Virus record (IMG/VR): IMGVR_UViG_3300037840_000227
Coordinates: 34,783 to 98,782 of that record
Strand: one strand, 5' to 3'
Source of the DNA: a virus
Length of the DNA stretch: 64,000 nucleotides
Part shown: one piece after another, positions 24,475 to 63,646 of the stretch
How the letters are laid out: every line of letters begins with the position of its first letter
Numbering within the stretch: position 1 is the first letter of the stretch
Notes under the pieces: model-generated
The model's database searches: none
Told to the model about the DNA's origin: nothing
Seen by the model: only the letters and a program-made list of their open reading frames with translations
Made by a program: the position numbers and the translations under genes

Positions 24475-24559
24475 GAAATGGACGAGCGCGCCTTCATCGG
24501 TTTTGTGATAGCCTTCATTATCGGCTGGGTGTTCAGCGCCCTAGTCTAGGAGGTTCCTT

Positions 24560-24829
24560 ATGAGAAAGATCGCGCTTCGCTGGCTCACCCCGCTCATGCT
24601 CTTGGGCATGACGACGTCGGCCTACGCCCAGGCCGGCTGCGACATCTTCCCATGGCCATGGTGCCCGAACGCAGAGCCTTCGATTGTCTGCGAGGGGCTT
24701 GGCTGCGGCGCGGCTCTTGGCAGTTTCGTATCGCCTACACCGCCGCCGGCTCCCCCTGCGCCAGCCCCGCACAACCACTGCGATCACAACACGGCAGCGG
24801 TATCGCATGGCGCGCACGGGCATAAGTGA
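24560..24829 (+). CDS. Small exported Pro/His-rich protein
   Basis: AGGAGG RBS; signal ending AYA-Q. Confidence 0.55.
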   Translation: MRKIALRWLTPLMLLGMTTSAYAQAGCDIFPWPWCPNAEPSIVCEGLGCGAALGSFVSPTPPPAPPAPAPHNHCDHNTAAVSHGAHGHK

Positions 24830-24841
24830 GGCGGACAGGCC

Positions 24842-25030
24842 ATGAAAGATGTTGTGATGCAATATTTCATCGTCCTGATGATCCACGGCACCGGCTGTCC
24901 TAACTGCCCGGATAAACAGGCTTATCCGGTGTATATTCAAGTCCCGTCCCTGGAGATTTGCATGCAGGTCAAGGAACGCAATCCCGATATGCCCGCTGAG
25001 TGTTGGGCGAAGCCCACTGGAGAGAAGTAG
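24842..25030 (+). CDS. Small Cys-containing protein
   Basis: Short ORF with CPNC. Confidence 0.45.
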   Translation: MKDVVMQYFIVLMIHGTGCPNCPDKQAYPVYIQVPSLEICMQVKERNPDMPAECWAKPTGEK

Positions 25031-25033
25031 ATT

Positions 25034-25621
25034 TCAAATGCTCTTCCATTTTTTCCTGGCGAGAATCGCGTGGACAGTTGTTTCCGACACTCCGTAATTT
25101 CTTGCGATCTGACGATTGCTGATAGTCCGGGGCGTTGCACGTATGGCTAAAACCTGCGGCTTGGTTAGTTTAGCGCCGCCATTTCTTTCACCATAGTTGC
25201 GCGTTCCATGCGCGATCATATCTTCTCTGTTTTCGACACGGGTTGCCCAACGAAGATGCTTTGGCGTTACGCAACCAAGACGCCCCTGCCCGCAAGAATG
25301 CGCAACCTCATGTTTCAGGGTGGGTGGAGGCCCATTAATTTCCTCGCAAATAATGCGGTGCACTGATTCCATCTTACCCCCCCCTATATGGACGACTCCG
25401 TATCCAACCCTCCTCGCGTATGGCCAAAACAAGCACTCGTTGCCACCATATGACTTCACAATTTCATTCATAAATCTCAATGGCTCCCCATAAGGAGTGC
25501 CTGATTTGGGTTTAAGGGGATCACCAACGCGCTTCCATTTTGCGTAATGGAAAGCGCACCATCCGAGCGCCTTATGTTTCTTGCCGCATCCTTCAATAGA
25601 ACATATTCTTTGGCCGGCCAT
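25034..25621 (-). CDS. HNH homing endonuclease
   Basis: CSIEGC...GWC..HY; VHRIIC...HSCG...CVTPKHLRWAT..EN..D; C-terminal HTH. Confidence 0.85.
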   Translation of the reverse strand: MAGQRICSIEGCGKKHKALGWCAFHYAKWKRVGDPLKPKSGTPYGEPLRFMNEIVKSYGGNECLFWPYARRVGYGVVHIGGGKMESVHRIICEEINGPPPTLKHEVAHSCGQGRLGCVTPKHLRWATRVENREDMIAHGTRNYGERNGGAKLTKPQVLAIRATPRTISNRQIARNYGVSETTVHAILARKKWKSI

Positions 25622-41523: not shown

Positions 41524-42131
41524 TGGCCCGCGTTCTCGCCGCTACGCCACCGCGCTCCAAGCCAGGCGCGAATCTTAGCAAGAGGCCAGAGGCGGAGAGG
41601 AAAGAGCCGCCGGTTATTGCTGAGCCGAAACTGGATAGGTCGGTGTTCTTGTTTATGTCCCCGCGGGATGGGCTTGACGGGAAGGGCCGGTTCGCTCAGT
41701 GCTCGGCATGTTCAAATTTCGTCGGGGAAGCGGCGATGGAGGGCAAGGTTCGCGGTGATAGATGCGCCATTTTTGGGAGCAATTTCCCAATTAGCGACGA
41801 CAGTTCATGTAATCTTTTTACGCCTTGGGCTATGGGGTCGCCTTGCAGAGAGTGTGTGGAGCATAATGCCGCTGAACTGGCTCGCGGACTGCGCGGGGCG
41901 GTTTCTCCTTATGAAGTCGGCTTTGTCCGAGATACCGAGGTGCGGTGCGGTCAATGTCGCATGTTCGACCCTGGGCGCCCCGGCGAGGAAGAGTCGCATT
42001 GTGACTTTTTCAGGCAGCTTACTGAAAAAATGCCAGAGATCTTCGATCTTGATAAGAGAGTTGACGCGAGCGATTGTTGTAACGCATGGAATGCGTTCCC
42101 AGTATTGGGAGAGCCAAATGGCAGCCGCTAG
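41523..42131 (+). CDS. Cys-rich protein with two HiPIP-like repeats
   Basis: CSACSNF...RCAIFG..I....SCNLF and CGQCRMF...HCDFF...V....CCNAW. Confidence 0.55.
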   Translation: MARVLAATPPRSKPGANLSKRPEAERKEPPVIAEPKLDRSVFLFMSPRDGLDGKGRFAQCSACSNFVGEAAMEGKVRGDRCAIFGSNFPISDDSSCNLFTPWAMGSPCRECVEHNAAELARGLRGAVSPYEVGFVRDTEVRCGQCRMFDPGRPGEEESHCDFFRQLTEKMPEIFDLDKRVDASDCCNAWNAFPVLGEPNGSR

Positions 42132-42660
42132 GGATCCTGTAGAATGCCCGTCACCTGAAGAGTTTCGCGAATTTTTGTCCTATGACCCAGAAATTGGGGT
42201 CCTCACGTGGGCTAAGGCACCGGGCTATAACAAGGATCACCTCGTAGGTAAAGAAGCGGGAGCTCTGACGGCAACTGGGTACAGACGCCTAAGGTTTAAC
42301 GGCAAATACTGGTTAACACACCGCGTGGTGTGGATGCTGGAGACAGGACAATATCCCGCGACTGAGATTGATCACAAAGACCGTAACCGCGCCAATAATA
42401 GATTTGCTAATTTACGCTTGGCGACACCATGCCAGAACCAGTTCAATGTTGAACGCCGCAAGAGCAATACGACCGGCTTCACAGGAGTCTTCTTGCAGAA
42501 ATCTACAAATCGATATTTTGCTTCTCACAAGTCTGGGGGCAAGCGAGAACATCTCGGTTATTGGGCTACTCCAGAAGAGGCGGCGGCGGCCTATCAGGCG
42601 GCGATCGCCAAGGTCCGCGGCGAATTCCTCGTCAGAGAGGTTGTGGAGATGCGGCCATGA
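42118..42660 (+). CDS. HNH-AP2 homing endonuclease
   Basis: YDPEIG, HRVVW, IDHKDRNRANNRFANLRLAT. Confidence 0.85.
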   Translation: MAAARDPVECPSPEEFREFLSYDPEIGVLTWAKAPGYNKDHLVGKEAGALTATGYRRLRFNGKYWLTHRVVWMLETGQYPATEIDHKDRNRANNRFANLRLATPCQNQFNVERRKSNTTGFTGVFLQKSTNRYFASHKSGGKREHLGYWATPEEAAAAYQAAIAKVRGEFLVREVVEMRP

Positions 42661-44776: not shown

Positions 44777-45118
44777 CTAAGTCTCAAGCTTGCCGTTGAC
44801 TACGGCATCATAGAAATGGCGTAAGGCGATCTCGCGGGGGTGCTGATTTACGCTGCGCCACAATTCCTCGTTGAGGTTGTGTATGCCCGCGGCGATAATC
44901 TTGCTCGCCTCATCGAGTGTAAGTCCGGTGATCGTCGGCAGGATGACAATCCTGGCGAGCGCGCCGGCGACGGTGATGCTGGTGCTTGCCTCTAGGAAGT
45001 CTTTATCAAGCGGCTTGTTCCAGGGATGGCCCGACGATGTCGGCTTCGCTATCGGCTGGACAAAGTCGCCAAGCCTCTCGCAGATCGCATCCACGGCGGC
45101 GGTATGGGTATCCGACAT
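44777..45118 (-). CDS. N-tag array protein A11
   Basis: Begins MSDTHTAAVDAICERLGDF. Confidence 0.75.
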   Translation of the reverse strand: MSDTHTAAVDAICERLGDFVQPIAKPTSSGHPWNKPLDKDFLEASTSITVAGALARIVILPTITGLTLDEASKIIAAGIHNLNEELWRSVNQHPREIALRHFYDAVVNGKLET

Positions 45119-45436
45119 TCACATCTCCTCAATCGCACCGCCGCGCGTCATGAAACCATCAAGGATGGCGAGACGATCCGAATGGTGCGCATAGCGCCAG
45201 ATAAGAGGGCCAATATCCCTAACGCCATTGGCTAACAGCGCGGCAAATTGCGACTGGGATAGTGGGGCGCCACTGAGAAGCAAAGAAAGGGCAACCGTTA
45301 CGGAATCAAGATCGGCGGCCATATCGAGCAGCCCATCGCTCGGCTGCCAGAAAGCAAGGGGGTGCCGCGTTGGCGCGATGTAATCCTCAAGGCGCTCCGT
45401 GATCGCATCCACGGCGGCGGCGTGATTATTGGCCAT
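45119..45436 (-). CDS. N-tag array protein A10
   Basis: Begins MANNHAAAVDAITERLEDY. Confidence 0.75.
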   Translation of the reverse strand: MANNHAAAVDAITERLEDYIAPTRHPLAFWQPSDGLLDMAADLDSVTVALSLLLSGAPLSQSQFAALLANGVRDIGPLIWRYAHHSDRLAILDGFMTRGGAIEEM

Positions 45437-45692
45437 GGACAATCCCCATAAACGCCGCATCCTTGACCCGATACCCGGTCCGTACACTCGTCTTTCCGTC
45501 CATCAGCAGCCAGGTAATGGACATCCTATCGCCATCGAGACGAATCGACTCCACCGTGCCGACTCCCGGCACATAATCGCCTAAGCGCAGATCGCCCATG
45601 CAGGGGTGGTGCGCAACTGCGGCGGCCGGCGCGATGTAATCCCCGAGGTGCGCGGTAATTGCCTCAACGGCCTTGGCGTGATTGGTGCTCAA
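45426..45692 (-). CDS. N-tag array protein A9
   Basis: TTG start; STNHAKAVEAITAHLGDY; DLRLGD. Confidence 0.75.
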   Translation of the reverse strand: MSTNHAKAVEAITAHLGDYIAPAAAVAHHPCMGDLRLGDYVPGVGTVESIRLDGDRMSITWLLMDGKTSVRTGYRVKDAAFMGIVHGQ

Positions 45693-45970
45693 AACGGAAT
45701 CTCGTCGGTTTTGACTATTGCTTCGCGAGGCACGACAATGCCGTATGTGCGATTGACGCCTATCGAGAGGTGAATGCAATCGTCAATCAGCACAACTCGG
45801 TATACATCGAGCCACTTTCCGCCCCACCATAGCTTATCGCCATTCCGCAACTGCCAGGCATGGATTTCGGTATACATCCCCGTCGGTTTAGCATTCGTCA
45901 CGCGCTCATAATCCGCAATCGCTTCGCATATTTCCGCTACGGCGCGGGCGTGGGCCTCATTCATCGCCAA
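45689..45970 (-). CDS. N-tag array protein A8
   Basis: NEAHARAVAEICEAIADY; QLRNGD. Confidence 0.75.
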   Translation of the reverse strand: MAMNEAHARAVAEICEAIADYERVTNAKPTGMYTEIHAWQLRNGDKLWWGGKWLDVYRVVLIDDCIHLSIGVNRTYGIVVPREAIVKTDEIPF

Positions 45971-46245
45971 ACCTCGAGCGAGGCGCTGTTTTTGTAGAAA
46001 TCGCCGATAATCTCCGTGGTGCCCTCAAAGAATATTTCCCGAAAGGACGAAGGCGGCGCGTCCCTTATTTTCGTAATTGCGACAAGGCAGTCGCCAATCC
46101 CGGGCGGCGAACAGCGAACCTTATCGCCGACGCGCAGGTCAGCCACGAACACTCGGCCAAGACACCGCGGTCCCCTCTTCTCCTCGAATCCGTAATCCGC
46201 GAGGTGTGCGACAATCTCTTCGACGGCGGCGCTATGATCAGCCAC
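45961..46245 (-). CDS. N-tag array protein A7
   Basis: MADHSAAVEEIVAHLADY; DLRVGD. Confidence 0.75.
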   Translation of the reverse strand: MADHSAAVEEIVAHLADYGFEEKRGPRCLGRVFVADLRVGDKVRCSPPGIGDCLVAITKIRDAPPSSFREIFFEGTTEIIGDFYKNSASLEVWR

Positions 46246-46480
46246 GGATCACCTCGACTGGAGTATGGCGGTCTAAAAAAGAACACCAGTTATGTATCCC
46301 TGGACCGTCCAACCAAAAGAGCGTGACAGTCTTCTTGCGGTGCTGGACGCGAGTGACAACGCCATAGCCAGGAACGATATCGCCGGCACGGACCGCCGCC
46401 GCACGGATCGTTCGGGGCCTTGGCTCGAGTTCCGAGATACGCTCCAAGATCGCCTCAACGGCTTGAGCGTGATCGTTCAC
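46238..46480 (-). CDS. N-tag array protein A6
   Basis: MNDHAQAVEAILERISEL; AVRAGD. Confidence 0.75.
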   Translation of the reverse strand: MNDHAQAVEAILERISELEPRPRTIRAAAVRAGDIVPGYGVVTRVQHRKKTVTLFWLDGPGIHNWCSFLDRHTPVEVIRG

Positions 46481-46704
46481 TACTCGAACTCCCAATCCTG
46501 TAGATCATGCGCCACGGCGGCGCAGGCGAGCCTATAGCGGCGCATCACGGCGTCGCTGATGGGGTGAGGCTTGGTGCGATAAACGCCGTCCTCGATGTTC
46601 TGGATCGCAGCAACCGAGTATCCAATGAGCCTAGATAGCTGCGGGCGATTATAGCGATTGCGCAAGCGCCACGTCTTTGCTTGCTCGCCGGTTGCTTGTG
46701 TCAC
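46480..46704 (-). CDS. XRE-family HTH protein (untagged, inside the array)
   Basis: AKTWRLRNRYNRPQLSRLIGYSVAAIQNIEDG...RLACAAV. Confidence 0.75.
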   Translation of the reverse strand: MTQATGEQAKTWRLRNRYNRPQLSRLIGYSVAAIQNIEDGVYRTKPHPISDAVMRRYRLACAAVAHDLQDWEFE

Positions 46705-46913
46705 GATGGCGTATCCTTTCCTGAGTCTATGTCATAGCCACACATGGCGGCGTAATCCTTGAGGAACGCATCCCAGTCGAAGCTGGTGAGGCGGCTGCGT
46801 AAATTTAGTTGCGCCTCCACCCATGAATAGGCGTTGAATTTTGGCGCAGCGGGAGGCTGATACGGCTCCATCCGCTCTAGGATTGCGGCGACTTTCTGTG
46901 CGTGATCCGTCAT
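46701..46913 (-). CDS. N-tag array protein A5
   Basis: MTDHAQKVAAILERMEPY. Confidence 0.75.
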   Translation of the reverse strand: MTDHAQKVAAILERMEPYQPPAAPKFNAYSWVEAQLNLRSRLTSFDWDAFLKDYAAMCGYDIDSGKDTPS

Positions 46914-47281
46914 AGGATTCCCCCCAGAACTCCACCAAACCAAGAACGAAGATGCTGCGGCTTCTCGGCGTCAAGCAGCGTAAGCGCCACCTTGCGCCGA
47001 TATGCTATCTCTTCAGCAGGCCTGCCGAGAAGTGTCGACACCTCATGCGCGACGAAAACATTGAGAAGGTGTATGCTAGGCCTATCTATTCCTTGACGGG
47101 CCAAATCCAGCTTTTTCTGAGCGACGATCGCTTGCATCTGAGCGAGTGAGAGTCCCGACTGCGCCCAGGGTGGCGCGCTCGCGCCCGCATCACTGCCCGG
47201 CGCGACAGCTACCGGCGGCGGCGCATATTCCTCCGCCTTGTGCAGGATTGCCTCGACTTCGGCGGCGTGCTTCTGGTTCAT
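46910..47281 (-). CDS. N-tag array protein A4
   Basis: MNQKHAAEVEAILHKAEEY. Confidence 0.75.
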   Translation of the reverse strand: MNQKHAAEVEAILHKAEEYAPPPVAVAPGSDAGASAPPWAQSGLSLAQMQAIVAQKKLDLARQGIDRPSIHLLNVFVAHEVSTLLGRPAEEIAYRRKVALTLLDAEKPQHLRSWFGGVLGGIL

Positions 47282-47550
47282 TTCTCTTCTCTGCGTCTTA
47301 TGAGGAGCATGGCTTCACAGGGCCAGTAACGCTGAGGCATAAAGCGCGCATTGGTGAGAAATATCATCTGGTTGTTAAAGAACTTAACTCCCAGCACTTC
47401 AAGCTCTCCTCCGCTATGCTCGTCAAGAAGCACGGTATCGCCGACTAAGACACAATCGGCGCGGGTAAGATGGCCGCGACTGGCGCGGGGTGCGCGATAG
47501 GCGTCCATCTTCTCCAGAATGTTCTCAACGGCTTGCTGATGATCGTTCAT
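47278..47550 (-). CDS. N-tag array protein A3
   Basis: MNDHQQAVENILEKMDAY; VLVGD. Confidence 0.75.
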   Translation of the reverse strand: MNDHQQAVENILEKMDAYRAPRASRGHLTRADCVLVGDTVLLDEHSGGELEVLGVKFFNNQMIFLTNARFMPQRYWPCEAMLLIRRREEK

Positions 47551-47825
47551 AGCAATCCCCGCTCTTTGCATTCGTTATAGGAGGGCGGGACAATTAGAAT
47601 CAGCATGCAGTGCTCCCAATCAATGTCTTTGCCGCCTTCGGTATGCGCATTAATCCACTCTCCCTCGCGCCCTATCTTCAAAATCCGTTCCTGACAAAAG
47701 GCAAGGATGTCGCCTACGCGTAAGTCCCGAGCGAGCACCGGGATACTTTCTTGCGGCGGCTGGTAATAAGGCCCCATCGCATCGAAAATCTCATCGACTG
47801 CCTTGGCGTGCGAGATGCGACTCAC
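47547..47825 (-). CDS. N-tag array protein A2
   Basis: MSRISHAKAVDEIFDAMGPY; DLRVGD. Confidence 0.75.
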   Translation of the reverse strand: MSRISHAKAVDEIFDAMGPYYQPPQESIPVLARDLRVGDILAFCQERILKIGREGEWINAHTEGGKDIDWEHCMLILIVPPSYNECKERGLL

Positions 47826-48118
47826 GATTCAATCGCTCCGATCTTGTACAGCCAGTTGTAGATGGCCGTCGTGCGCAGGCTGTGGCTGGCCTGTTGCCAG
47901 TCGAAATTGACGCATCCGCTCATAGTGGGGCCTTCCGCGGACTGGAGAGTACGTGGAAGTTGTTGGGCGAGCCACATTACAGCGCGTCCGTAGTCGTCAT
48001 ACCTCGCAGCCTTGAAGGCGAGAGCGCGGGCCACGGGATTGGGGAGCCGAGACGTTGCGGGCGCGCTGTAATCCTGCATACGCTCTAGGATGTCCTGGAC
48101 AGCTTGGGCGTGGGTCAA
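47822..48118 (-). CDS. N-tag array protein A1
   Basis: GAAGGAG RBS; MTHAQAVQDILERMQDY. Confidence 0.75.
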   Translation of the reverse strand: MTHAQAVQDILERMQDYSAPATSRLPNPVARALAFKAARYDDYGRAVMWLAQQLPRTLQSAEGPTMSGCVNFDWQQASHSLRTTAIYNWLYKIGAIES

Positions 48119-50762: not shown

Positions 50763-51836
50763 ATGCACATAATCCAAGCGAAACAATGCCTTAAGGCCTA
50801 TATACAGGCCGGCATTCCGACATTTTTGGAAGGACCGCCCGGTGTCGGCAAGTCGGATATTACCTATCAGGTGTCCGACGAGCTAAGCGCCTATCTTGTC
50901 GAGGAGCGGGCGTCGACTCTTGAGTCTATCGACATGCGCGGGCTTCCGTTCGTTTACAACATCGGGAATCTCGCGAGCGCCCTCGCTGGCGCGCATGCGG
51001 ATAAGGTGCAATCGATCCTCGATCAGATGGAAGTCTATGCCGGCCCAACTGTCCAATGGGCTAAGCCGCATTGGCTGGACGAATTGGAGCGCGCGCCGGC
51101 TGAACAGCTTAAAATTCTCTTCCTCGATGAGCTAGTGCAAGCAAGTCTCGCTGTTCAAGTCGCCTGTTTTCAGTTGGTATGGAATGGCCGAATCGGCCCT
51201 CACAAGCTCCCGCCTCATACCATCGTCGTTGCGGCTGGCAATCGCCAGGCTGACCGCGCCGGCGCCAATCGCATGCCAACGGCCCTCGCCAACCGATTCG
51301 GGCATATCGATGTCGAGGTGGATTCCGACACGTGGCAAAAATGGGCCAACGTCAACGGGATCGAGCCGCTGTTGTGTGCGTTTTTGAAGTTCAGGCCGGC
51401 CTCGCTTCATCGCATGCCGGAAGGCAATGTCAAAGCATTCCCCTCACCGCGCTCCTGGGTGCAAGTGGCGAAGATTCTCCATGCGGCGGATGACATCAGG
51501 CCGAAGCTAATCGAAGGGCTTGTCGGCGAAGGCGATGCAGCCGAGTTGGAGAAGTTCATTCAAATGTACAAACATCTCCCCTCCTTCGCCGAGATTATCG
51601 CTAGGCCTCAGACGGTTGCAGTCCCGACTCAACCGGACATTCAACACGCTGTGGCGTCGATGCTCTCGCGCAAGGCGGATCGGACGAATTTTGATGCAAT
51701 CTGTGTCTATGCCGGCAGATTGCCGAAGGAATTCGAAGTGAGTCTCGTGAGCGAGGCGGTTCAACGCGACGCGGGCTTGAAAACGACGAAGGGCTTTATC
51801 GCTTGGGCATCCCGCAATTCCGACATTACAATCTAA
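50763..51836 (+). CDS. MoxR-type AAA+ ATPase
   Basis: Walker A GPPGVGKS, Walker B ILFLDE, AAGN, ALANRF, PSPRSW. Confidence 0.9.
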   Translation: MHIIQAKQCLKAYIQAGIPTFLEGPPGVGKSDITYQVSDELSAYLVEERASTLESIDMRGLPFVYNIGNLASALAGAHADKVQSILDQMEVYAGPTVQWAKPHWLDELERAPAEQLKILFLDELVQASLAVQVACFQLVWNGRIGPHKLPPHTIVVAAGNRQADRAGANRMPTALANRFGHIDVEVDSDTWQKWANVNGIEPLLCAFLKFRPASLHRMPEGNVKAFPSPRSWVQVAKILHAADDIRPKLIEGLVGEGDAAELEKFIQMYKHLPSFAEIIARPQTVAVPTQPDIQHAVASMLSRKADRTNFDAICVYAGRLPKEFEVSLVSEAVQRDAGLKTTKGFIAWASRNSDITI

Positions 51837-51848
51837 GGAGGGGACGAA

Positions 51849-53006
51849 ATGACGCCCCTACAGGCTAAAGCCGCTGAGCGCATACGGATCGCCCGTATGC
51901 GCGTCATGCTCAAAAATGGATTCTTCGGCGCGCCTCTTATGCAGATGGGCATGCGCGCCGAGGACTCGATTCCAACGATGGGAGTCGACGGCCGACATCT
52001 CTACTACAACGCCAAATGGGTGCTCGATCTCAAGGGCGATGAACTGCAGGGCGTTCTCGTACATGAGGTGCTGCATATCTGCTATCTGCACCATACGCGC
52101 CGAGGGGACCGCGATCCAGAGCTATGGAATGTCAGCGGGGATGCGGTCATTAACCTGGATGTTAAAGCCGCCGGCTTCCAGCTACCTCCCGGCGTTAACA
52201 CCCCAGGCGGGATGATCCAAATACCGGATGCAGCCGGCAAGTCTTGTGAGCAAGTATACAACATGCTCAAGAAGCAAGGCTTCAAACCGGCGCCCGGTCC
52301 TGATCCTGGCGGATGCGGCGGCGTCATGGATGCAGCCAAGCCCCATCAGGTGGTAGCGCTCGGCGAAGCGGAGCGACAGGCGCAACAAATGATCCGGGGC
52401 GCGATGGCTGTTGCGCGCGGGCGCAACGCGGGCAATATTCCATCGGCGCTCGTGCGGATGATGGCCGAACTGGATAAGCCTAAAACGAGTTGGGGCGATA
52501 CGTTCCGAGCTTGGGCGGATGAGGGCCGCAGCTATGATACCGATTGGTGTCGGCCATCGCGGCGCGATCTCGGGAATGGATTTATCCTGCCGTCAACCGT
52601 CTCGATTGCGCCGGCTCATATCGTGGCCTGGGTTGATACGTCTGGCTCCATGTCGCAAGAGGCTCTGAGCGCGATCATGGCGGAGCTTCAGGGGATGCTT
52701 GACGAGCACGTGTGCGACAAGCTCACCATTGGTTATTGCGACACGCGCGTTCAGGGTACGGAGGAGTGTGAGCCGGGCGACATTATCAAATCGGTTCCGC
52801 GCCCTGGCGGCGGTACCGATTTCGCGCCAGCAATGGAGTGGACTCGCCAGAACGTGGAGCGGCCATCGGGTGTCGTGTACCTCACCGATCTGGAATGCCA
52901 CTCGTTCGGCTTTTCGCCTGGGTGTCCCGTTTTGTGGGTGCGGTATGGCTCCTATGGCAATAATCCGCCGTACGGCCGTGTTCTCGAAATCGATCCAAGC
53001 GCATGA
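51849..53006 (+). CDS. HExxH metallopeptidase-like plus VWA domain protein (DUF2201-like)
   Basis: VLVHEVLH...H..RR...WN...D..IN; MIDAS VDTSGSMS, GGGTDF, YLTD. Confidence 0.9.
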   Translation: MTPLQAKAAERIRIARMRVMLKNGFFGAPLMQMGMRAEDSIPTMGVDGRHLYYNAKWVLDLKGDELQGVLVHEVLHICYLHHTRRGDRDPELWNVSGDAVINLDVKAAGFQLPPGVNTPGGMIQIPDAAGKSCEQVYNMLKKQGFKPAPGPDPGGCGGVMDAAKPHQVVALGEAERQAQQMIRGAMAVARGRNAGNIPSALVRMMAELDKPKTSWGDTFRAWADEGRSYDTDWCRPSRRDLGNGFILPSTVSIAPAHIVAWVDTSGSMSQEALSAIMAELQGMLDEHVCDKLTIGYCDTRVQGTEECEPGDIIKSVPRPGGGTDFAPAMEWTRQNVERPSGVVYLTDLECHSFGFSPGCPVLWVRYGSYGNNPPYGRVLEIDPSA

Positions 53007-53254
53007 GCGAGAAAGTCACTCTTACGCCAGAACAAGCGGCAGGATTGCCGACCGGTGTCCAGTGGGAACTCGTGCGCCTCGTGACTGGCAGCGTTGGCGC
53101 GCTGGACGCAGTGAACTTTGGCGCCGGTCGCGCGTTCCCGCTGTATTGGAGCCTTGTACGCAAGTGCTGGTGCTCGGTAGAACCGGACTTGCCACCGTCA
53201 ATGGCAGTCTGGGATGCCATAGATGAGCTACGGGCGACTGAGGCACGCCGATGA
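53003..53254 (+). CDS. C-tag array protein B1
   Basis: Ends VWDAIDELRATEARR. Confidence 0.75.
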   Translation: MSEKVTLTPEQAAGLPTGVQWELVRLVTGSVGALDAVNFGAGRAFPLYWSLVRKCWCSVEPDLPPSMAVWDAIDELRATEARR

Positions 53255-53598
53255 GCAAAGCGCCCAAGCCTCGCAAGCGGCGGTTCGAGCACGTCAAGGC
53301 AGGGGATGTGCTGGTTACCGCGCCGTCTGAGCGATACGGTGTCAGGGGTACGTATTTCGTTGTCGTACTGCTGCGCCAAGTCGATGCGGTATACTGTCAG
53401 ACATGCGATGAGGACGGCAGCCATGCGCGCGGCCCGAAATGGGGTAGTTCCGTTTTGAGATTGGCTCAACAAGGATTCCAGTACGTTTCCGTCTGGCGGG
53501 CTCTCGCGCACCAGGAGCAAGTCGCATCTGTCACGCATGACGCGGATGCGCTGTATGAGGCTATCGAGGCTCTTCGCGAGCGGGAGGCGCGCCGATGA
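53251..53598 (+). CDS. C-tag array protein B2
   Basis: Ends LYEAIEALREREARR; contains HVKAGD. Confidence 0.75.
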   Translation: MSKAPKPRKRRFEHVKAGDVLVTAPSERYGVRGTYFVVVLLRQVDAVYCQTCDEDGSHARGPKWGSSVLRLAQQGFQYVSVWRALAHQEQVASVTHDADALYEAIEALREREARR

Positions 53599-53858
53599 AG
53601 GAGGCGTATGTGATTCTGAACGGGGAGCAATTGCTGAAGTTGCCGGGGGGCACTGGCGCGTATCACCACGCGTGGCTAGACCCGAACGGCTATATCGTTG
53701 CCGAGTCGCTCATGGGCGGTCCTAAACTATTCTGGGCGCCGATATCGCGGGAATGGTGGGAGTACCGCGAAGCGCAGCCGCCCGACGTCTGCGATATGAT
53801 CGAGGCGATTGAGGAATTAAGAGCTTCGGAGGCAGGACGATGGGGCAAGGGCCAATAG
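53595..53858 (+). CDS. C-tag array protein B3
   Basis: Ends MIEAIEELRASEAGRWGKGQ. Confidence 0.75.
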   Translation: MKEAYVILNGEQLLKLPGGTGAYHHAWLDPNGYIVAESLMGGPKLFWAPISREWWEYREAQPPDVCDMIEAIEELRASEAGRWGKGQ

Positions 53859-54178
53859 ACGCGGGCGATCTGCATCGGCGCGCCCTGCGGGTTCTTGCGG
53901 GCGAGAAGATCGATTACTGGGCTCCGCAGCGCGAACTTCCTAGGGATACTCCTTTTGAACTCGCCAATTGGCAGAGGGTGCAATTCACTGGCGCGCTCGT
54001 GGCGATAGACGCAACTGGCTATTACGCGCCTGTCGTGAAGATTAAGAGCCAATGGCATAGGCTATATACCTTTGGCGAGGATTGGGGCAATCGATTGGAA
54101 AATGCACCATCGGCGCCCGATAGCATTGCAATGTGGGATGCTATCGACGCGCTCCGAGCCTCGGAGGCCGGGCGATGA
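53840..54178 (+). CDS. C-tag array protein B4
   Basis: Ends MWDAIDALRASEAGR. Confidence 0.75.
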   Translation: MGQGPIDAGDLHRRALRVLAGEKIDYWAPQRELPRDTPFELANWQRVQFTGALVAIDATGYYAPVVKIKSQWHRLYTFGEDWGNRLENAPSAPDSIAMWDAIDALRASEAGR

Positions 54179-54417
54179 AAGTTCCGAGCGAATTGACGAT
54201 AGAGAGAACCGCCGCGGGCTTGCCTTCTGGCATATGGGAGTACCATCGCGAGAGTTTTGGACTCGTCGCGGAAGATCATTCCGGCGTTCATGCGCCGTAC
54301 TGTTGGAATGTCTACGATGGAGAATGGCGCGTCTTGCTAGGCCGCGCGCACGAGCGTCACGGGCCGCACATTGAAGATGCAATCGAGGAATTGCGCGCCA
54401 GCGAGGCAAGGCGATGA
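54175..54417 (+). CDS. C-tag array protein B5
   Basis: Ends IEDAIEELRASEARR. Confidence 0.75.
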   Translation: MKVPSELTIERTAAGLPSGIWEYHRESFGLVAEDHSGVHAPYCWNVYDGEWRVLLGRAHERHGPHIEDAIEELRASEARR

Positions 54418-54659
54418 AGTTCAACGATCTGACGAGCGATCAGCGCTATTTGCTGTTGCGGGTGAGCAGCGGGCCATGGGAGTTTCATCTCGACGTCAAT
54501 GGCTATCTCGTGGCGACTCATCGCTTCTTGAAGTGGTGTCGATACTGGAGTCCGCTGCGATCAATGTGGCTACCGCTATCGTTAGTGCCGCTCGAAGCGG
54601 CAGCGATCTGGGATGCGATCGAAGAGCTTCGCGCCTCAGAGCGGCGGAACACGAGCTAG
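54414..54659 (+). CDS. C-tag array protein B6
   Basis: Ends IWDAIEELRASERRNTS. Confidence 0.75.
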   Translation: MKFNDLTSDQRYLLLRVSSGPWEFHLDVNGYLVATHRFLKWCRYWSPLRSMWLPLSLVPLEAAAIWDAIEELRASERRNTS

Positions 54660-58135: not shown

Positions 58136-58338
58136 GCCGATCCTCCCTCGAAGTCGGCGCCTCCTCGATCTTTGCGGCGCTCCTGCTGTTTGTCTCCGGC
58201 TGCGTCATCGCCGGCTCCACGACGGATGGCCAAGGGGCCCTCGCCTTTATGGATTTCGTCGCGATGCTCTGGCTGGGCGCCTGGGGGATCGCCGCGGTGA
58301 TCCAACAAATCTTCGGCAACGTGCGGGATGCACCATGA
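58132..58338 (+). CDS. Small membrane protein
   Basis: Two TM segments. Confidence 0.5.
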   Translation: MSRSSLEVGASSIFAALLLFVSGCVIAGSTTDGQGALAFMDFVAMLWLGAWGIAAVIQQIFGNVRDAP

Positions 58339-58547
58339 AATTCTTCACCGTCCGCTGCGCCAAATGCGACGATACCCTCAAGATCGAGGGCCCTCTCGGC
58401 GCCAAGGCGATCGTCGTCTTCGATACCCGCGAGGAAGCGGAACACTTTCTCAAGGTCAGCATCTCAGCGCAGGATCATCCGCTCATGGTTTCGCAAGTCG
58501 ATATCGAAGAGCCAGCAGGAATACCAGCCGGGGAGACCGCGCAATGA
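58335..58547 (+). CDS. Hypothetical protein
   Basis: Coupled ORF; FDTREEAE. Confidence 0.5.
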   Translation: MKFFTVRCAKCDDTLKIEGPLGAKAIVVFDTREEAEHFLKVSISAQDHPLMVSQVDIEEPAGIPAGETAQ

Positions 58548-59098
58548 TCGTAGGTTACGCCCGCGTCAGCAGCGATAGCCAGCATCTCGAACTCCAGCGC
58601 GAGCGCCTCGCCGCCGCCGGTTGCGAGAAAATCTTCGAGGAAAAGGCCGATCGCGCCCAGCTCGAAGCCTGCCTGACGGCGCTGAAAGTCGGCGATACCC
58701 TCGTTATCACCAAACTCGATCGCCTCGGACGATCCGCGATTGATCTTTTACGCACCGTTCATTCGCTCGCCCAGCGCGGCGTCCATTTCAAATCCCTTGG
58801 CGATGCCTGGCTCGATACGTCAACGCCGATCGGGCGATACCTCCTCATCGCCTTCGCCGGCCTCGCCGAGCTCGATCGCGAGTGGATTCTCGAGCGCGCC
58901 GCCGCCGGTCGCGAGAGCGCCCAGAAGATGGGCGTCAAATTCGGGCGCTCCCACGTCCTCACCCTGCATCAATGCGCCGAGGCCAACGCCAGATTGAAGG
59001 AGGGCGAGACCGTCAAGGCCGTCGCCAGGTCCTATAATGTCGATCCCGCCACCATCCGCCGGGCTCGCGGCATGGCTCTGCATGGAGCGATCCGATGA
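58544..59098 (+). CDS. Small serine recombinase (resolvase/invertase family)
   Basis: GYARVSS..Q, GDTLVITKLDRLGRS, DTSTP.G, ER...G, GVKFGR, C-terminal HTH. Confidence 0.9.
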   Translation: MIVGYARVSSDSQHLELQRERLAAAGCEKIFEEKADRAQLEACLTALKVGDTLVITKLDRLGRSAIDLLRTVHSLAQRGVHFKSLGDAWLDTSTPIGRYLLIAFAGLAELDREWILERAAAGRESAQKMGVKFGRSHVLTLHQCAEANARLKEGETVKAVARSYNVDPATIRRARGMALHGAIR

Positions 59099-62809: not shown

Positions 62810-63221
62810 GGATCGAAAGAAAATGCGCAGCCACACCGCCGCCGGGGCCAATGGCGAGCCAAGGGCGGTCGAGCCGAGTTTCGACATGCCGGATGATGAA
62901 GGCGCGCCGCCGCCGGTTCCGTCCAACCCAGATAGGCAGGCGATCATGCGCGCTCAATCCCTCGCGGCCGTCGCCGCGGAGCGGGCGGCCAACCCAACTG
63001 ATCTCCCAGAGAACCTCGATGCCGATCAGCGCGACGCGCTCCTCGCCGCGCAGCGAATGAAGCCAAAGTCGCCGGCGATGCGTAAGGCCTCAGGGCTGCC
63101 GGTTTCAGAAATGCGGATGCGGATGCTCGAGATGGCCTCCAGAGTGGCCGATCCGAAGGCGGGCCCCGCCGGGCTGATCGAAGCGGCCAAGCAGCTCCTC
63201 GATTTCGTCAGTGAGGGCTGA
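62742..63221 (+). CDS. Hypothetical protein
   Basis: C-terminal RMR.LEMA...LIEAAK.L.DFV; start uncertain. Confidence 0.5.
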   Translation: MGKTTNHRLRRARQWARELQESKDRKKMRSHTAAGANGEPRAVEPSFDMPDDEGAPPPVPSNPDRQAIMRAQSLAAVAAERAANPTDLPENLDADQRDALLAAQRMKPKSPAMRKASGLPVSEMRMRMLEMASRVADPKAGPAGLIEAAKQLLDFVSEG

Positions 63222-63646
63222 TGAGCGCCACGGCTCTCACCTACGCTCCCCCGCCGCCGCCCGTGACGATTGTCGGCCCTGTCCCGGGCGGCGGCGGGGC
63301 AGGAAACCGCGGGATCATGGTTCCGCGAGGCAAGCCGGATCCGGAGGGCGGCGCCGACTATCCACCTCTCGAAATCCAATTTGGCGATGACGACGCCTTC
63401 GAAAACCCGGATCACGCCGCCAAGGTCCGCCGGATTTGTGAAGACATGGACGGCGCCATTTCCCCTGTGCTGCCGGGCCGCATTCGATTCGAGTGTGCGG
63501 CTGCGGACCCGCCATTCTCGGGCTCCCCAACACTCCGAGGCGCGCCCCTCGCCGAGCGAATCTTCATCTATAGCGCTCTCTTTATTATTATAGGGCTGAT
63601 GACGATGGGCCTGTGGACGATCGTCAGGCTGCTGGGATTTCTCTGA
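63221..63646 (+). CDS. Hypothetical protein with C-terminal TM
   Basis: TGATG coupling. Confidence 0.5.
   Translation: MSATALTYAPPPPPVTIVGPVPGGGGAGNRGIMVPRGKPDPEGGADYPPLEIQFGDDDAFENPDHAAKVRRICEDMDGAISPVLPGRIRFECAAADPPFSGSPTLRGAPLAERIFIYSALFIIIGLMTMGLWTIVRLLGFL

Follow-up and report, generated by a model that had tools for sequence, protein, structure and literature searches.

Layout of the tagged-gene array and its neighbourhood

The analyzed window of 64 kb is part of a complete phage genome of 98.8 kb, which has terminal repeats. It contains an array of 11 translationally coupled minus-strand genes (44777-48118), which encode small proteins with a common N-terminal helix, the tag, followed by a variable body (Table 1). 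The sequence-only reading had described eleven tandem genes, and all 11 tag strings that it quoted were found on the minus strand, but an untagged HTH gene breaks the contiguity of the array. Several starts overlap the preceding stop (GTGA, ATGA, TTGA), and a purine run resembling a Shine-Dalgarno sequence is present 5-10 nt 5' of each array start codon. A promoter and terminator scan yielded nothing informative. The array adjoins recombination genes and AAA and VWA genes, and not the head module; its genes and the neighbouring AAA and VWA genes have a similar GC content by codon position.

Table 1. Features of the array and of the adjoining AAA/VWA genes.
Feature	Position	Strand	Remarks
A1, 98 aa	47822..48118	-	tag M-T-HAQAVQDILERMQDY; helical-class body; weak relatives A10 and B1 (related phage)
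A2, 92 aa	47547..47825	-	tag HAKAVDEIFDAMGPY; LRVGD motif in body; ortholog B4 in related phage, 30% body identity
A3, 90 aa	47278..47550	-	tag HQQAVENILEKMDAY; body without detectable relative
A4, 123 aa	46910..47281	-	tag HAAEVEAILHKAEEY; tag orthologous to B3 tag
A5, 70 aa	46701..46913	-	tag HAQKVAAILERMEPY; among array tags nearest to the AAA insertion (10/18 aa)
XRE-type HTH gene, 74 aa	46480..46704	-	untagged; between A5 and A6; 65% identical to counterpart at same relative position in related phage
A6, 80 aa	46238..46480	-	tag HAQAVEAILERISEL; body related to A9 (z 7.6)
A7, 94 aa	45961..46245	-	tag HSAAVEEIVAHLADY; LRVGD motif in body; related to A9 (z 5.6)
A8, 91 aa	45689..45964	-	tag HARAVAEICEAIADY
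A9, 88 aa	45426..45692	-	tag HAKAVEAITAHLGDY
A10, 105 aa	45119..45436	-	tag HAAAVDAITERLEDY
A11, 113 aa	44777..45118	-	tag HTAAVDAICERLGDF
MoxR-class AAA+ ATPase (NorQ/CbbQ/midasin-like)	50763..51836	+	divergent from array
Lineage-specific insertion in ATPase, 28 residues (65-92)	50955..51047	+	YNIGNLASALAGAHADKVQSILDQMEVY, plus following AGP; tag copy HADKVQSILDQMEVY-AGP inside
DUF2201_N metallopeptidase-like (HEVLH) + VWA-like domain (DTSGS, DxSxS MIDAS-type)	51849..53006	+	motifs read from translation
Second library, six coupled small genes	53003..54659	+	shared C-terminal helix [WYI][DE]AI[DE]xLRAxEARR

Only one relative was found, an 87-kb phage (G001/L008) with core proteins of about 57% identity. 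It has a syntenic array, in which six tags surround the same HTH gene and which lies between the same flanking blocks. The VWA gene of this phage is followed by three genes that are similar to the C-terminally tagged genes of the second library. In both phages, this library is coupled to the VWA gene. A comparison with GenBank phages revealed no DNA similarity. Among the loci examined, the tags were confined to these two genomes. No tag was found at about 180 other loci, and no tag array was present at four loci around DUF3150-like relatives or at 15 loci around HTH homologs. Apart from the related phage, none was seen at the AAA-gene loci (80 viral, 80 genomic and two metagenome loci) or in a scan of viral contigs with a degenerate tag pattern. 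A generic search of all loci for small ORFs with a common terminal motif recovered the positive controls, and its output was dominated by spurious GC-rich ORFs.

Conservation of the tag and diversity of the bodies

The consensus of the array tags is M-x(1-4)-H-x3-V-x2-I-x3-[MLIAV]-x2-[YFL], with a Pro linker after it in most cases. A fuller description comprises an N-cap (D/N/T/S), H-A-x-A-V-x-x-I-x-x-x-[MLIV]-x-x-[YFW], and an x-x-Pro cap. The proposed invariance of H, V and I held across 16 aligned tags from the two phages, and the six-tag array of the relative retained these residues ahead of divergent bodies. The final Tyr of the proposed motif did not hold, as it is replaced by L in A6 and by F in A11. 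The positions H0, V4, I7, M11 and Y14 are spaced 4-3-4-3 and therefore lie on one face of a helix. On this face, His, Val, Ile, Met/Leu and Tyr make up a narrow stripe with small Ala residues on either side, and the opposite face is acidic. All array tags are net acidic.

The mean identity of the tags is 48% over 15 residues. In a comparison of a 22-position tag HMM with all six-frame ORFs of the complete genome (98.8 kb), the 11 genes scored 31-41 bits and the next match 10.8 bits; the strength of the motif is far beyond chance. Selection acts on the tag at the protein level, as had been suggested: the third codon positions of the array tags are only about 39% identical, the invariant Val is encoded by GTC, GTT, GTA or GTG and the invariant Ile by ATC, ATT or ATA, and conservation follows the helical periodicity. 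In all 11 genes the start codon is situated 1-4 codons ahead of the His, and therefore the tag is the extreme N-terminus and the true starts do not lie downstream of the motif. In an AlphaFold2 model of A7, a helix was predicted at residues 2-17, followed by a low-confidence linker and a beta-rich body, which also had a low confidence (model pLDDT 56).

The bodies behave very differently from the tags. After removal of the tags, 116 of 120 pairs had a z below 4 and four a z above 4, with a median of 0.15. The pI of the bodies spans 4.5-10.8. Weakly related groups are A6/A7/A9 and A1/A10/A11. The bodies are thus mostly unrelated, in contrast to the tags, and the uniform divergence that is typical of whole-gene paralogs was not observed. 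The proteins are modular, and the description of the array as a constant-plus-variable library stood with regard to the constant tag and most of the bodies, but not for those bodies that are paralogous; with this caveat, "library" is a fair description. The bodies are of several different types and are rapidly evolving or replaced. This was also seen in the comparison of the two phages, the core proteins of which are 55-87% identical, whereas the identity between array bodies does not exceed 30% or is undetectable. The tags of A4 and B3 share 12 of 15 amino acids and 35 of 45 nucleotides, but no alignment of their bodies is possible, which suggests that a body was swapped behind a retained tag.

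The tagged proteins did not match any family in Pfam, PHROG, NCBIfam or PADLOC. An exhaustive HMMER search of 1.84 billion representative proteins returned the phage's own proteins and a single foreign match, P0013, which turned out to be false. It has 1175 aa with about 25 repeats of ..HSDAIQTILKDLDGY.., and its score is a sum over these repeats; it was rejected as a relative, as the tag-only model gave at most 0 bits per repeat and its Pfam and PHROG matches were likewise inflated by the repeats. No match of at least 0.9 was present in the protein atlas, and a word-based protein search revealed no further tag arrays.

A tag copy in the neighbouring ATPase

The ATPase contains Walker A and B motifs (GPPGVGKS and LFLDEL, read from the sequence) and matches Pfam AAA and AAA_5. 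The best fold matches of its model were NorQ and CbbQ2 (Foldseek E 1e-10), and the HMM matches agree in class. It has an AAA+ core, a beta-hairpin insert in helix 2 and an adjoining VWA partner with a MIDAS motif (VWA-like domain match, E 5.9e-25), and it thus belongs to the MoxR class. In the AlphaFold2 model the hairpin is formed by strands 62-65 and 96-99 and lies between helices 55-59 and 103-110.

The loop segment with the insertion comprises 49 residues, compared to 21-23 residues in 69 homologs, from all of which the insertion is absent. The insertion matched a model built from 16 tags with a genome-wide E of 8.5e-4, and none of 2000 composition-matched shuffles reached its local score; the match, which is strong considering the 20-residue length of the motif, comes from a single genome only. 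The insertion is predicted to be helical and to be located at the tip of the hairpin. At third codon positions, its similarity to the array tags does not exceed chance expectation, and therefore it is not a recent copy of a tag. All key tag residues have nevertheless been kept, which we take to mean that the insertion has been maintained by selection. In NorQ, the hairpins of the helix-2 inserts form a pore crown that grips the VWA partner at its alpha-helical finger (PMC13036017).

The AAA protein had been one of the suggested partners of the tag, and the tag copy inside the ATPase has lent real support to this suggestion. The ATPase of the related phage lacks the insertion, although the array is present, and thus the insertion cannot be a universal tag receptor. 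Another suggested partner, the DUF3150-like protein, gained no such support: its gene is missing from the locus of the relative, and the likeness of its C-terminal helix to the tag is not supported (-3.6 bits with the tag model).

Possible roles of the tag

The helix appears to be a common docking tag, of a kind that has not previously been described. Our preferred interpretation, which we rate at slightly below an even chance, is that this portable helix serves for docking and directs diversifying small proteins to a single shared site, probably on the adjacent AAA+/VWA-peptidase machine. For the binding of the tag, its target and the roles of the bodies we infer the following. The constant helix would carry each body, connected via the Pro-rich flexible linker, to the common binding site, and the variable bodies would supply different specificities or activities, e.g., the binding of different host proteins. 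The common site would most likely be the NorQ-like MoxR AAA+ ring together with its metallopeptidase-VWA partner. The ATPase of this phage displays its own tag copy on the crown of helix-2 inserts, the equivalent surface of which binds the VWA finger in NorQ. Array tags might pair with the ring copy by homotypic helix packing, or both might compete for one receptor, in which case the ring copy would be a pseudo-ligand or an auto-regulator. The adjacency of the array and the AAA gene could be an accident of one lineage, because about 165 other AAA-gene loci are devoid of such tags.

Provided that the helix acts as an address tag, it would target proteins to a phage AAA+/VWA machine and, as a targeting peptide, would be natural, transferable and, at 15 residues, minimal; it would offer a direct experimental handle on the role of phage MoxR-VWA pairs. 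It would also be a second, independent case of a constant address plus diversifying cargo, which in phages is, to our knowledge, otherwise known only from the internal proteins of T-even phages. The rapid turnover of the bodies points to a cargo shaped by an arms race, e.g., candidate anti-defence or host-takeover proteins without known relatives. The grafting of a client-like tag into the partner-binding loop of an ATPase would be an unusual evolutionary event, and it leads to a concrete prediction of the place where the tag binds.

A wider proposal, which we regard as rather doubtful, is a hub-and-adaptor machine of a new kind, in which the NorQ-like ring and the peptidase-VWA protein are served by both small-protein libraries, one with an N-terminal helix (11 genes here and six in the relative) and one with a C-terminal helix (six and three genes, respectively). 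Each body would capture a different host target, e.g., a defence protein, and for remodelling or proteolysis the tags would dock the bodies on opposite faces of the ring. Built-in competitors or anchoring points would be provided by the tag copy of the crown and possibly by the tag-like helix of a tail-anchored membrane protein. The phage ATPase shares its fold with NorQ, CbbQ and midasin, it is followed by a VWA gene with a DxSxS motif as in the NorQ-NorD and CbbQ-CbbO systems, and the crown of NorQ binds a helical element of the partner. In contrast to these systems, the phage VWA protein has an additional HExxH peptidase-like domain (DUF2201_N), and the helix-2 insert is enlarged by the tag-copy helix. 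We know of no tagged small-protein array for any MoxR system.

Three other explanations are less probable. First, the tag might be a virion-targeting signal that loads small anti-defence proteins into the head or an ejection apparatus for delivery into the cell together with the DNA; we consider this unlikely. The logic is that of the T4 internal proteins (IPI, IPII, IPIII, Alt), which form a clustered set of diverse, fast-evolving small proteins with nothing in common but a short conserved N-terminal address (PMC3012670). The bodies of the array also share only a short N-terminal signal, and their fast evolution is what an arms race would give. A phage tail lysozyme domain occurs in very large proteins of the phage, taken to be of the ejection type, and I-x-E, present in seven of the 11 tags, resembles the T4 protease site. 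However, the tagged proteins have no sequence similarity to the T4 proteins, and the complete genome contains no match to Peptidase_S78 or CLP_protease (ClpP-type); a search with Peptidase_S77 (T4 gp21) gave no match in the phage, and the control genomes were silent as well. Furthermore, the array has its own HTH regulator and is located outside of the head module, and the occurrence of this 15-residue amphipathic helix also in a loop of a hexameric ATPase is hard to reconcile with a packaging signal.

Second, the tag might be a short coiled-coil-like helix by which its bearers, including the ATPase loop and possibly a membrane protein, form homo- or hetero-oligomers without a separate receptor. 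The 4-3-4-3 spacing fits a heptad pattern, and several proteins of one phage, the ATPase among them, bear the same helix. In both phages, a tag-like helix is found in a membrane protein with a C-terminal anchor, but the matches are below the threshold (9.1 and 5.4 bits). A canonical coiled coil has at least 3-4 heptads with hydrophobic residues at a and d, whereas about two heptads fit between the N-cap and the Pro, too few for a stable isolated coiled coil. The net acidic charge of all tags also disfavours self-pairing, and this explanation is improbable.

Third, the genes might be an ordinary paralog family, in which the helix is the active part, e.g., as an inhibitor plugging one conserved host target, the bodies are fast-drifting scaffolds, and the adjacency to the AAA/VWA genes is incidental. 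A functional site is often the most conserved part of a protein, several bodies are indeed paralogous, the DUF3150-like neighbour is not conserved in the related phage, and other loci with the same AAA gene are tagless. Nevertheless, this explanation also has a low probability: 11 copies of one warhead on bodies that differ in predicted class and charge would be uneconomical, A4 and B3 combine the same tag with wholly different bodies, and the tag copy in the ATPase loop would be left unexplained. Conservation of the 5' ends as a nucleic-acid signal for translation coupling, RNA structure or recombination would agree with the coupling of the array genes and with the similarity of the A4 and B3 tags also in DNA, but it is highly improbable in view of the divergent third positions, the three to four different codons at invariant residues and the helical periodicity.

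The docking-helix interpretation has parallels in two further systems. Kaur, Burroughs, Iyer and Aravind reportedly described in 2020 effector-associated adaptor domains in NTPase/vWA-MoxR conflict systems, in which a small helical module is said to occur on the core NTPase and on effector termini of one neighbourhood, implying recruitment by matching modules. The logic is alike and no homology is claimed; the adaptors are reportedly folded multi-helix domains of 60-100 residues from cellular defence systems, whereas the phage has a single 15-residue helix. Prochlorosin-type precursor libraries consist of tandem genes with a constant N-terminal leader, a variable core and an adjacent processing enzyme, and the phage array likewise combines a constant N-terminal part with a variable remainder in tandem. 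In contrast to these libraries, no RiPP enzymes are encoded near the array, and the phage bodies have 50-105 residues and the composition of folded proteins instead of short Cys/Ser/Thr-rich cores.

The N-terminally tagged genes

The array is filled by twelve closely packed minus-strand ORFs, eleven of which (A1-A11) carry the motif H-x3-V-x2-I-x3-[MLIA]-x2-Y. The sequence-only reading had described eleven tandem genes. The tight packing was indeed found, but the series is interrupted by one ORF without the motif, which has a weak profile match to XRE-type HTH proteins. When the six-frame ORFs of the whole genome were scored with an HMM of the eleven tags, the array tags received 31-41 bits and the best other match 10.8 bits, and thus the claim of a common N-terminal motif was borne out. 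In all eleven cases an ATG, GTG or TTG stands 1-4 codons ahead of the His, and therefore the helix is located at the extreme N-terminus and the true starts lie upstream of the motif. A purine-rich Shine-Dalgarno-like run is present upstream of each of these starts, several of which overlap the stop codon of the previous gene, and the GC contents at the three codon positions match those in the neighbouring genes. The His is usually preceded by D, N, T or S, i.e., by the classic helix N-caps.

The tag comparisons rest on the two phage genomes that bear tags, and in the 16 tags aligned H, V and I never vary. Counted from the His (position 0), the conserved positions 0, 4, 7, 11 and 14 lie on one helical face, as had been proposed for H, V and I; positions 1 and 3 are mainly Ala, and the remaining positions are acidic or polar. 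Selection at the protein level was likewise verified, as the third codon positions of the tags have an identity of only 39%, and four codons are used for the invariant Val and three for the invariant Ile. The same codon analysis speaks against the alternative that the conserved segment has a role at the RNA or DNA level. The net charge is negative in all tags, and the pI of the bodies, i.e., the remainders of the proteins, ranges from 4.5 to 10.8. In an AlphaFold2 model of A7 (six-sequence alignment) residues 2-17 are helical, with a pLDDT of about 79 for the first ten residues, and are followed by a linker with a pLDDT below 50 and a beta-rich, poorly defined body. No family match of the array proteins was found in Pfam, PHROG or PADLOC.

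Sister phage, variable bodies and distribution

The virus record is complete (98,782 bp, direct terminal repeats; the window covers 34783-98782), and the neighbouring genes identify a tailed phage. It looks lytic, apart from a DNA invertase gene in the right arm. DNA similarity to GenBank phages was sought, and none was found. The nearest cellular homologs of the ATPase are encoded by Hyphomicrobiales prophages, which suggests that the host probably belongs to this order. The closest homolog of the ATPase led to the sister phage, IMG/VR UViG_3300043788_000049 (complete, 87,271 bp). The two phages are syntenic, with core proteins of 55-87% identity. At the equivalent place, on the strand opposite its ATPase gene, the sister phage has six tagged genes in the order B1 to B5, HTH, B6, and the two HTH proteins are 65% identical. 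In B2 the tag is found at residue 84, behind an HNH-like fragment (HHIDGNPNNHDLANL); this frame may contain a homing-endonuclease remnant inserted in the array, or its start may be miscalled. In both phages the array region is flanked by homing-endonuclease-like genes of the HNH_3-AP2 type, which could play a part in the turnover of genes there.

Features of the window and of the sister phage (sequences G001 and L008)
Feature	Position	Strand	Remarks
HNH_3-AP2 gene	41617-42660	+	flanks array
N-tag array, A1-A11	44777-48118	-	
Weak XRE-type HTH	46480-46704	-	untagged; profile match
DUF3150-like gene (300 aa), ORFs of 153 and 83 aa	48180-49915	-	between array and ATPase
AAA+ ATPase, MoxR class	50763-51836	+	
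Peptidase-VWA gene	51849-53006	+	after ATPase; DUF2201_N metallopeptidase-like domain (HEVLH) fused to VWA-like domain (DTSGS motif)
Second, C-terminally tagged library	53003-54659	+	six coupled small genes directly after VWA gene
DNA invertase, serine-recombinase type	58328-59098	+	phrog_125, E 4e-52
Anchored ORF (141 aa)	63221-63646	+	
Tail-lysozyme proteins			neighbouring genes; Pfam/PHROG scans
DnaB-primase			neighbouring genes; Pfam/PHROG scans
PDDEXK/RecT pair			neighbouring genes; Pfam/PHROG scans
HNH-AP2 endonuclease			neighbouring genes; Pfam/PHROG scans
Small terminase subunit			neighbouring genes; Pfam/PHROG scans
Sister, HNH_3-AP2 genes	L008 15-536, 6228-6704		flank array region
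Sister, B2	L008 8412-8957	-	open frame of 181 aa
Sister, genes after VWA gene	L008 12488-15311		three genes
Sister, ortholog of anchored ORF	G001 24519-25439	-	

After removal of the tags, the bodies were compared in 120 pairs using z-scores of local alignments versus shuffles, and BLAST was also run. A z above 4 was reached by four pairs (A2-B4, A6-A9, A7-A9 and A1-B1). The median body z of 0.15, versus a mean pairwise tag identity of 48% across 15 residues, confirmed the proposed constant-plus-variable organization and not a uniform divergence. Between the two phages the bodies have diverged far beyond the rest of the genome: those of A2 and B4 are 30% identical, those of A1 and B1 are weakly similar, and for the other A and B bodies similarity was undetectable. 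Although the tags of A4 and B3 agree at 12 of 15 residues (35 of 45 nucleotides), no alignment of the two bodies is possible, which points to a body swap during which the tag stayed.

Among 5.8 billion proteins searched through a word index, the phage's own proteins were the only matches. When 1.84 billion representatives were searched exhaustively with HMMER, these were returned together with one repeat protein, which was rejected because its score was an artefact of summed repeats. Tags were absent from about 165 other loci with this AAA gene (viral, metagenomic and GTDB genome collections), from 4 loci around DUF3150-like relatives and from 15 loci around HTH homologs, and thus the tag family appears to be restricted to a single narrow lineage.

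The conserved locus and the tag copy in the ATPase

Common to both phages is an N-tag array, followed divergently by the AAA gene, the peptidase-VWA gene and a C-tag array. In the window, the helix [WYI][DE]AI[DE]xLRAxEARR ends all six genes of the latter; the corresponding genes of the sister phage end with ..IEELRA... The DUF3150-like gene and the two ORFs next to it fall outside the conserved core, because the sister locus has no match to them. Relatives of the DUF3150-like protein with 32% identity are present in the cyanophages MinM2 and Pag-Yong1. A resemblance of its C-terminus to the tag was unsupported by comparison with the tag model.

Scanning the genome with a simple pattern revealed HADKVQSILDQMEVY-AGP inside the AAA+ ATPase. 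With the 16-tag model this copy has an E of 8.5e-4 per genome, and it is the sole match outside the arrays in both phages. It lies in an insertion, 2000 shuffles of which all stayed below its local score of 12.6 bits. This unique insertion of 28 residues contains the copy wholly: the segment between the conserved motifs RGLP and W-x-x-P comprises 49 residues in the window ATPase versus 21-23 residues in every homolog (12, then 69 aligned), including the sister-phage ATPase (57-63% identical). Up to 10 of 18 residues are alike between the insertion and array tags, but an excess of third-position identity is absent, and thus the insertion is not a recent copy of an array tag.

In the AlphaFold2 model of the ATPase (70 sequences, pLDDT 92.6) the insertion forms a helix (67-88) at the tip of a beta-hairpin of strands 62-65 and 96-99. 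As this hairpin, which lies between the strands of Walker A and Walker B, breaks helix 2, it is predicted to be the helix-2 insert of AAA+ clade 7. NorQ and CbbQ2 are the best structural matches of the ATPase, and its sequence matches include midasin. In the NorQ-NorD structures (2026), the H2 inserts build the pore crown at the N-terminal face and bind the VWA partner by its alpha-helical finger; remodelling depends on this contact (PMC13036017).

Possible roles of the tag

The results fit a portable docking helix that would direct small proteins of diverse kinds to one shared site. The leading candidate for this site is the MoxR/VWA-peptidase machine next door, because the ring has come to carry a tag copy on the surface by which it binds its partner; the helix would address the diverse bodies to one site on this machine. 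The ATPase tag copy itself cannot be the universal receptor, because the sister ATPase lacks it, and it may be a competitor, an auto-regulator or an extra anchoring point.

Alternatively, the tag could be a helix for self-association, or a conserved 'warhead' carried on drifting scaffolds. The tag could also be a virion-targeting signal like that of T4; against this alternative, an S78 or ClpP-type prohead protease was not found in the complete genome, the array lies outside of the head module, and a tag copy is present in the ATPase. A search for Peptidase_S77 gave no match either, but neither did its control genomes.

The anchored ORF is rich in Pro and Gly in its N-terminal part and has a hydrophobic anchor at its C-terminus; inside it lies the tag-like segment NPDHAAKVRRICEDMDGAISP (9.1 bits). 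Judged from its sequence, it may represent a third class of tag-bearing protein, with a match that is below significance when taken alone. The sister ortholog has NPDHAAKVREYCETLKDYAP (5.4 bits) and also a hydrophobic segment at its end, and between the two proteins conservation is highest in the tag-like segment.
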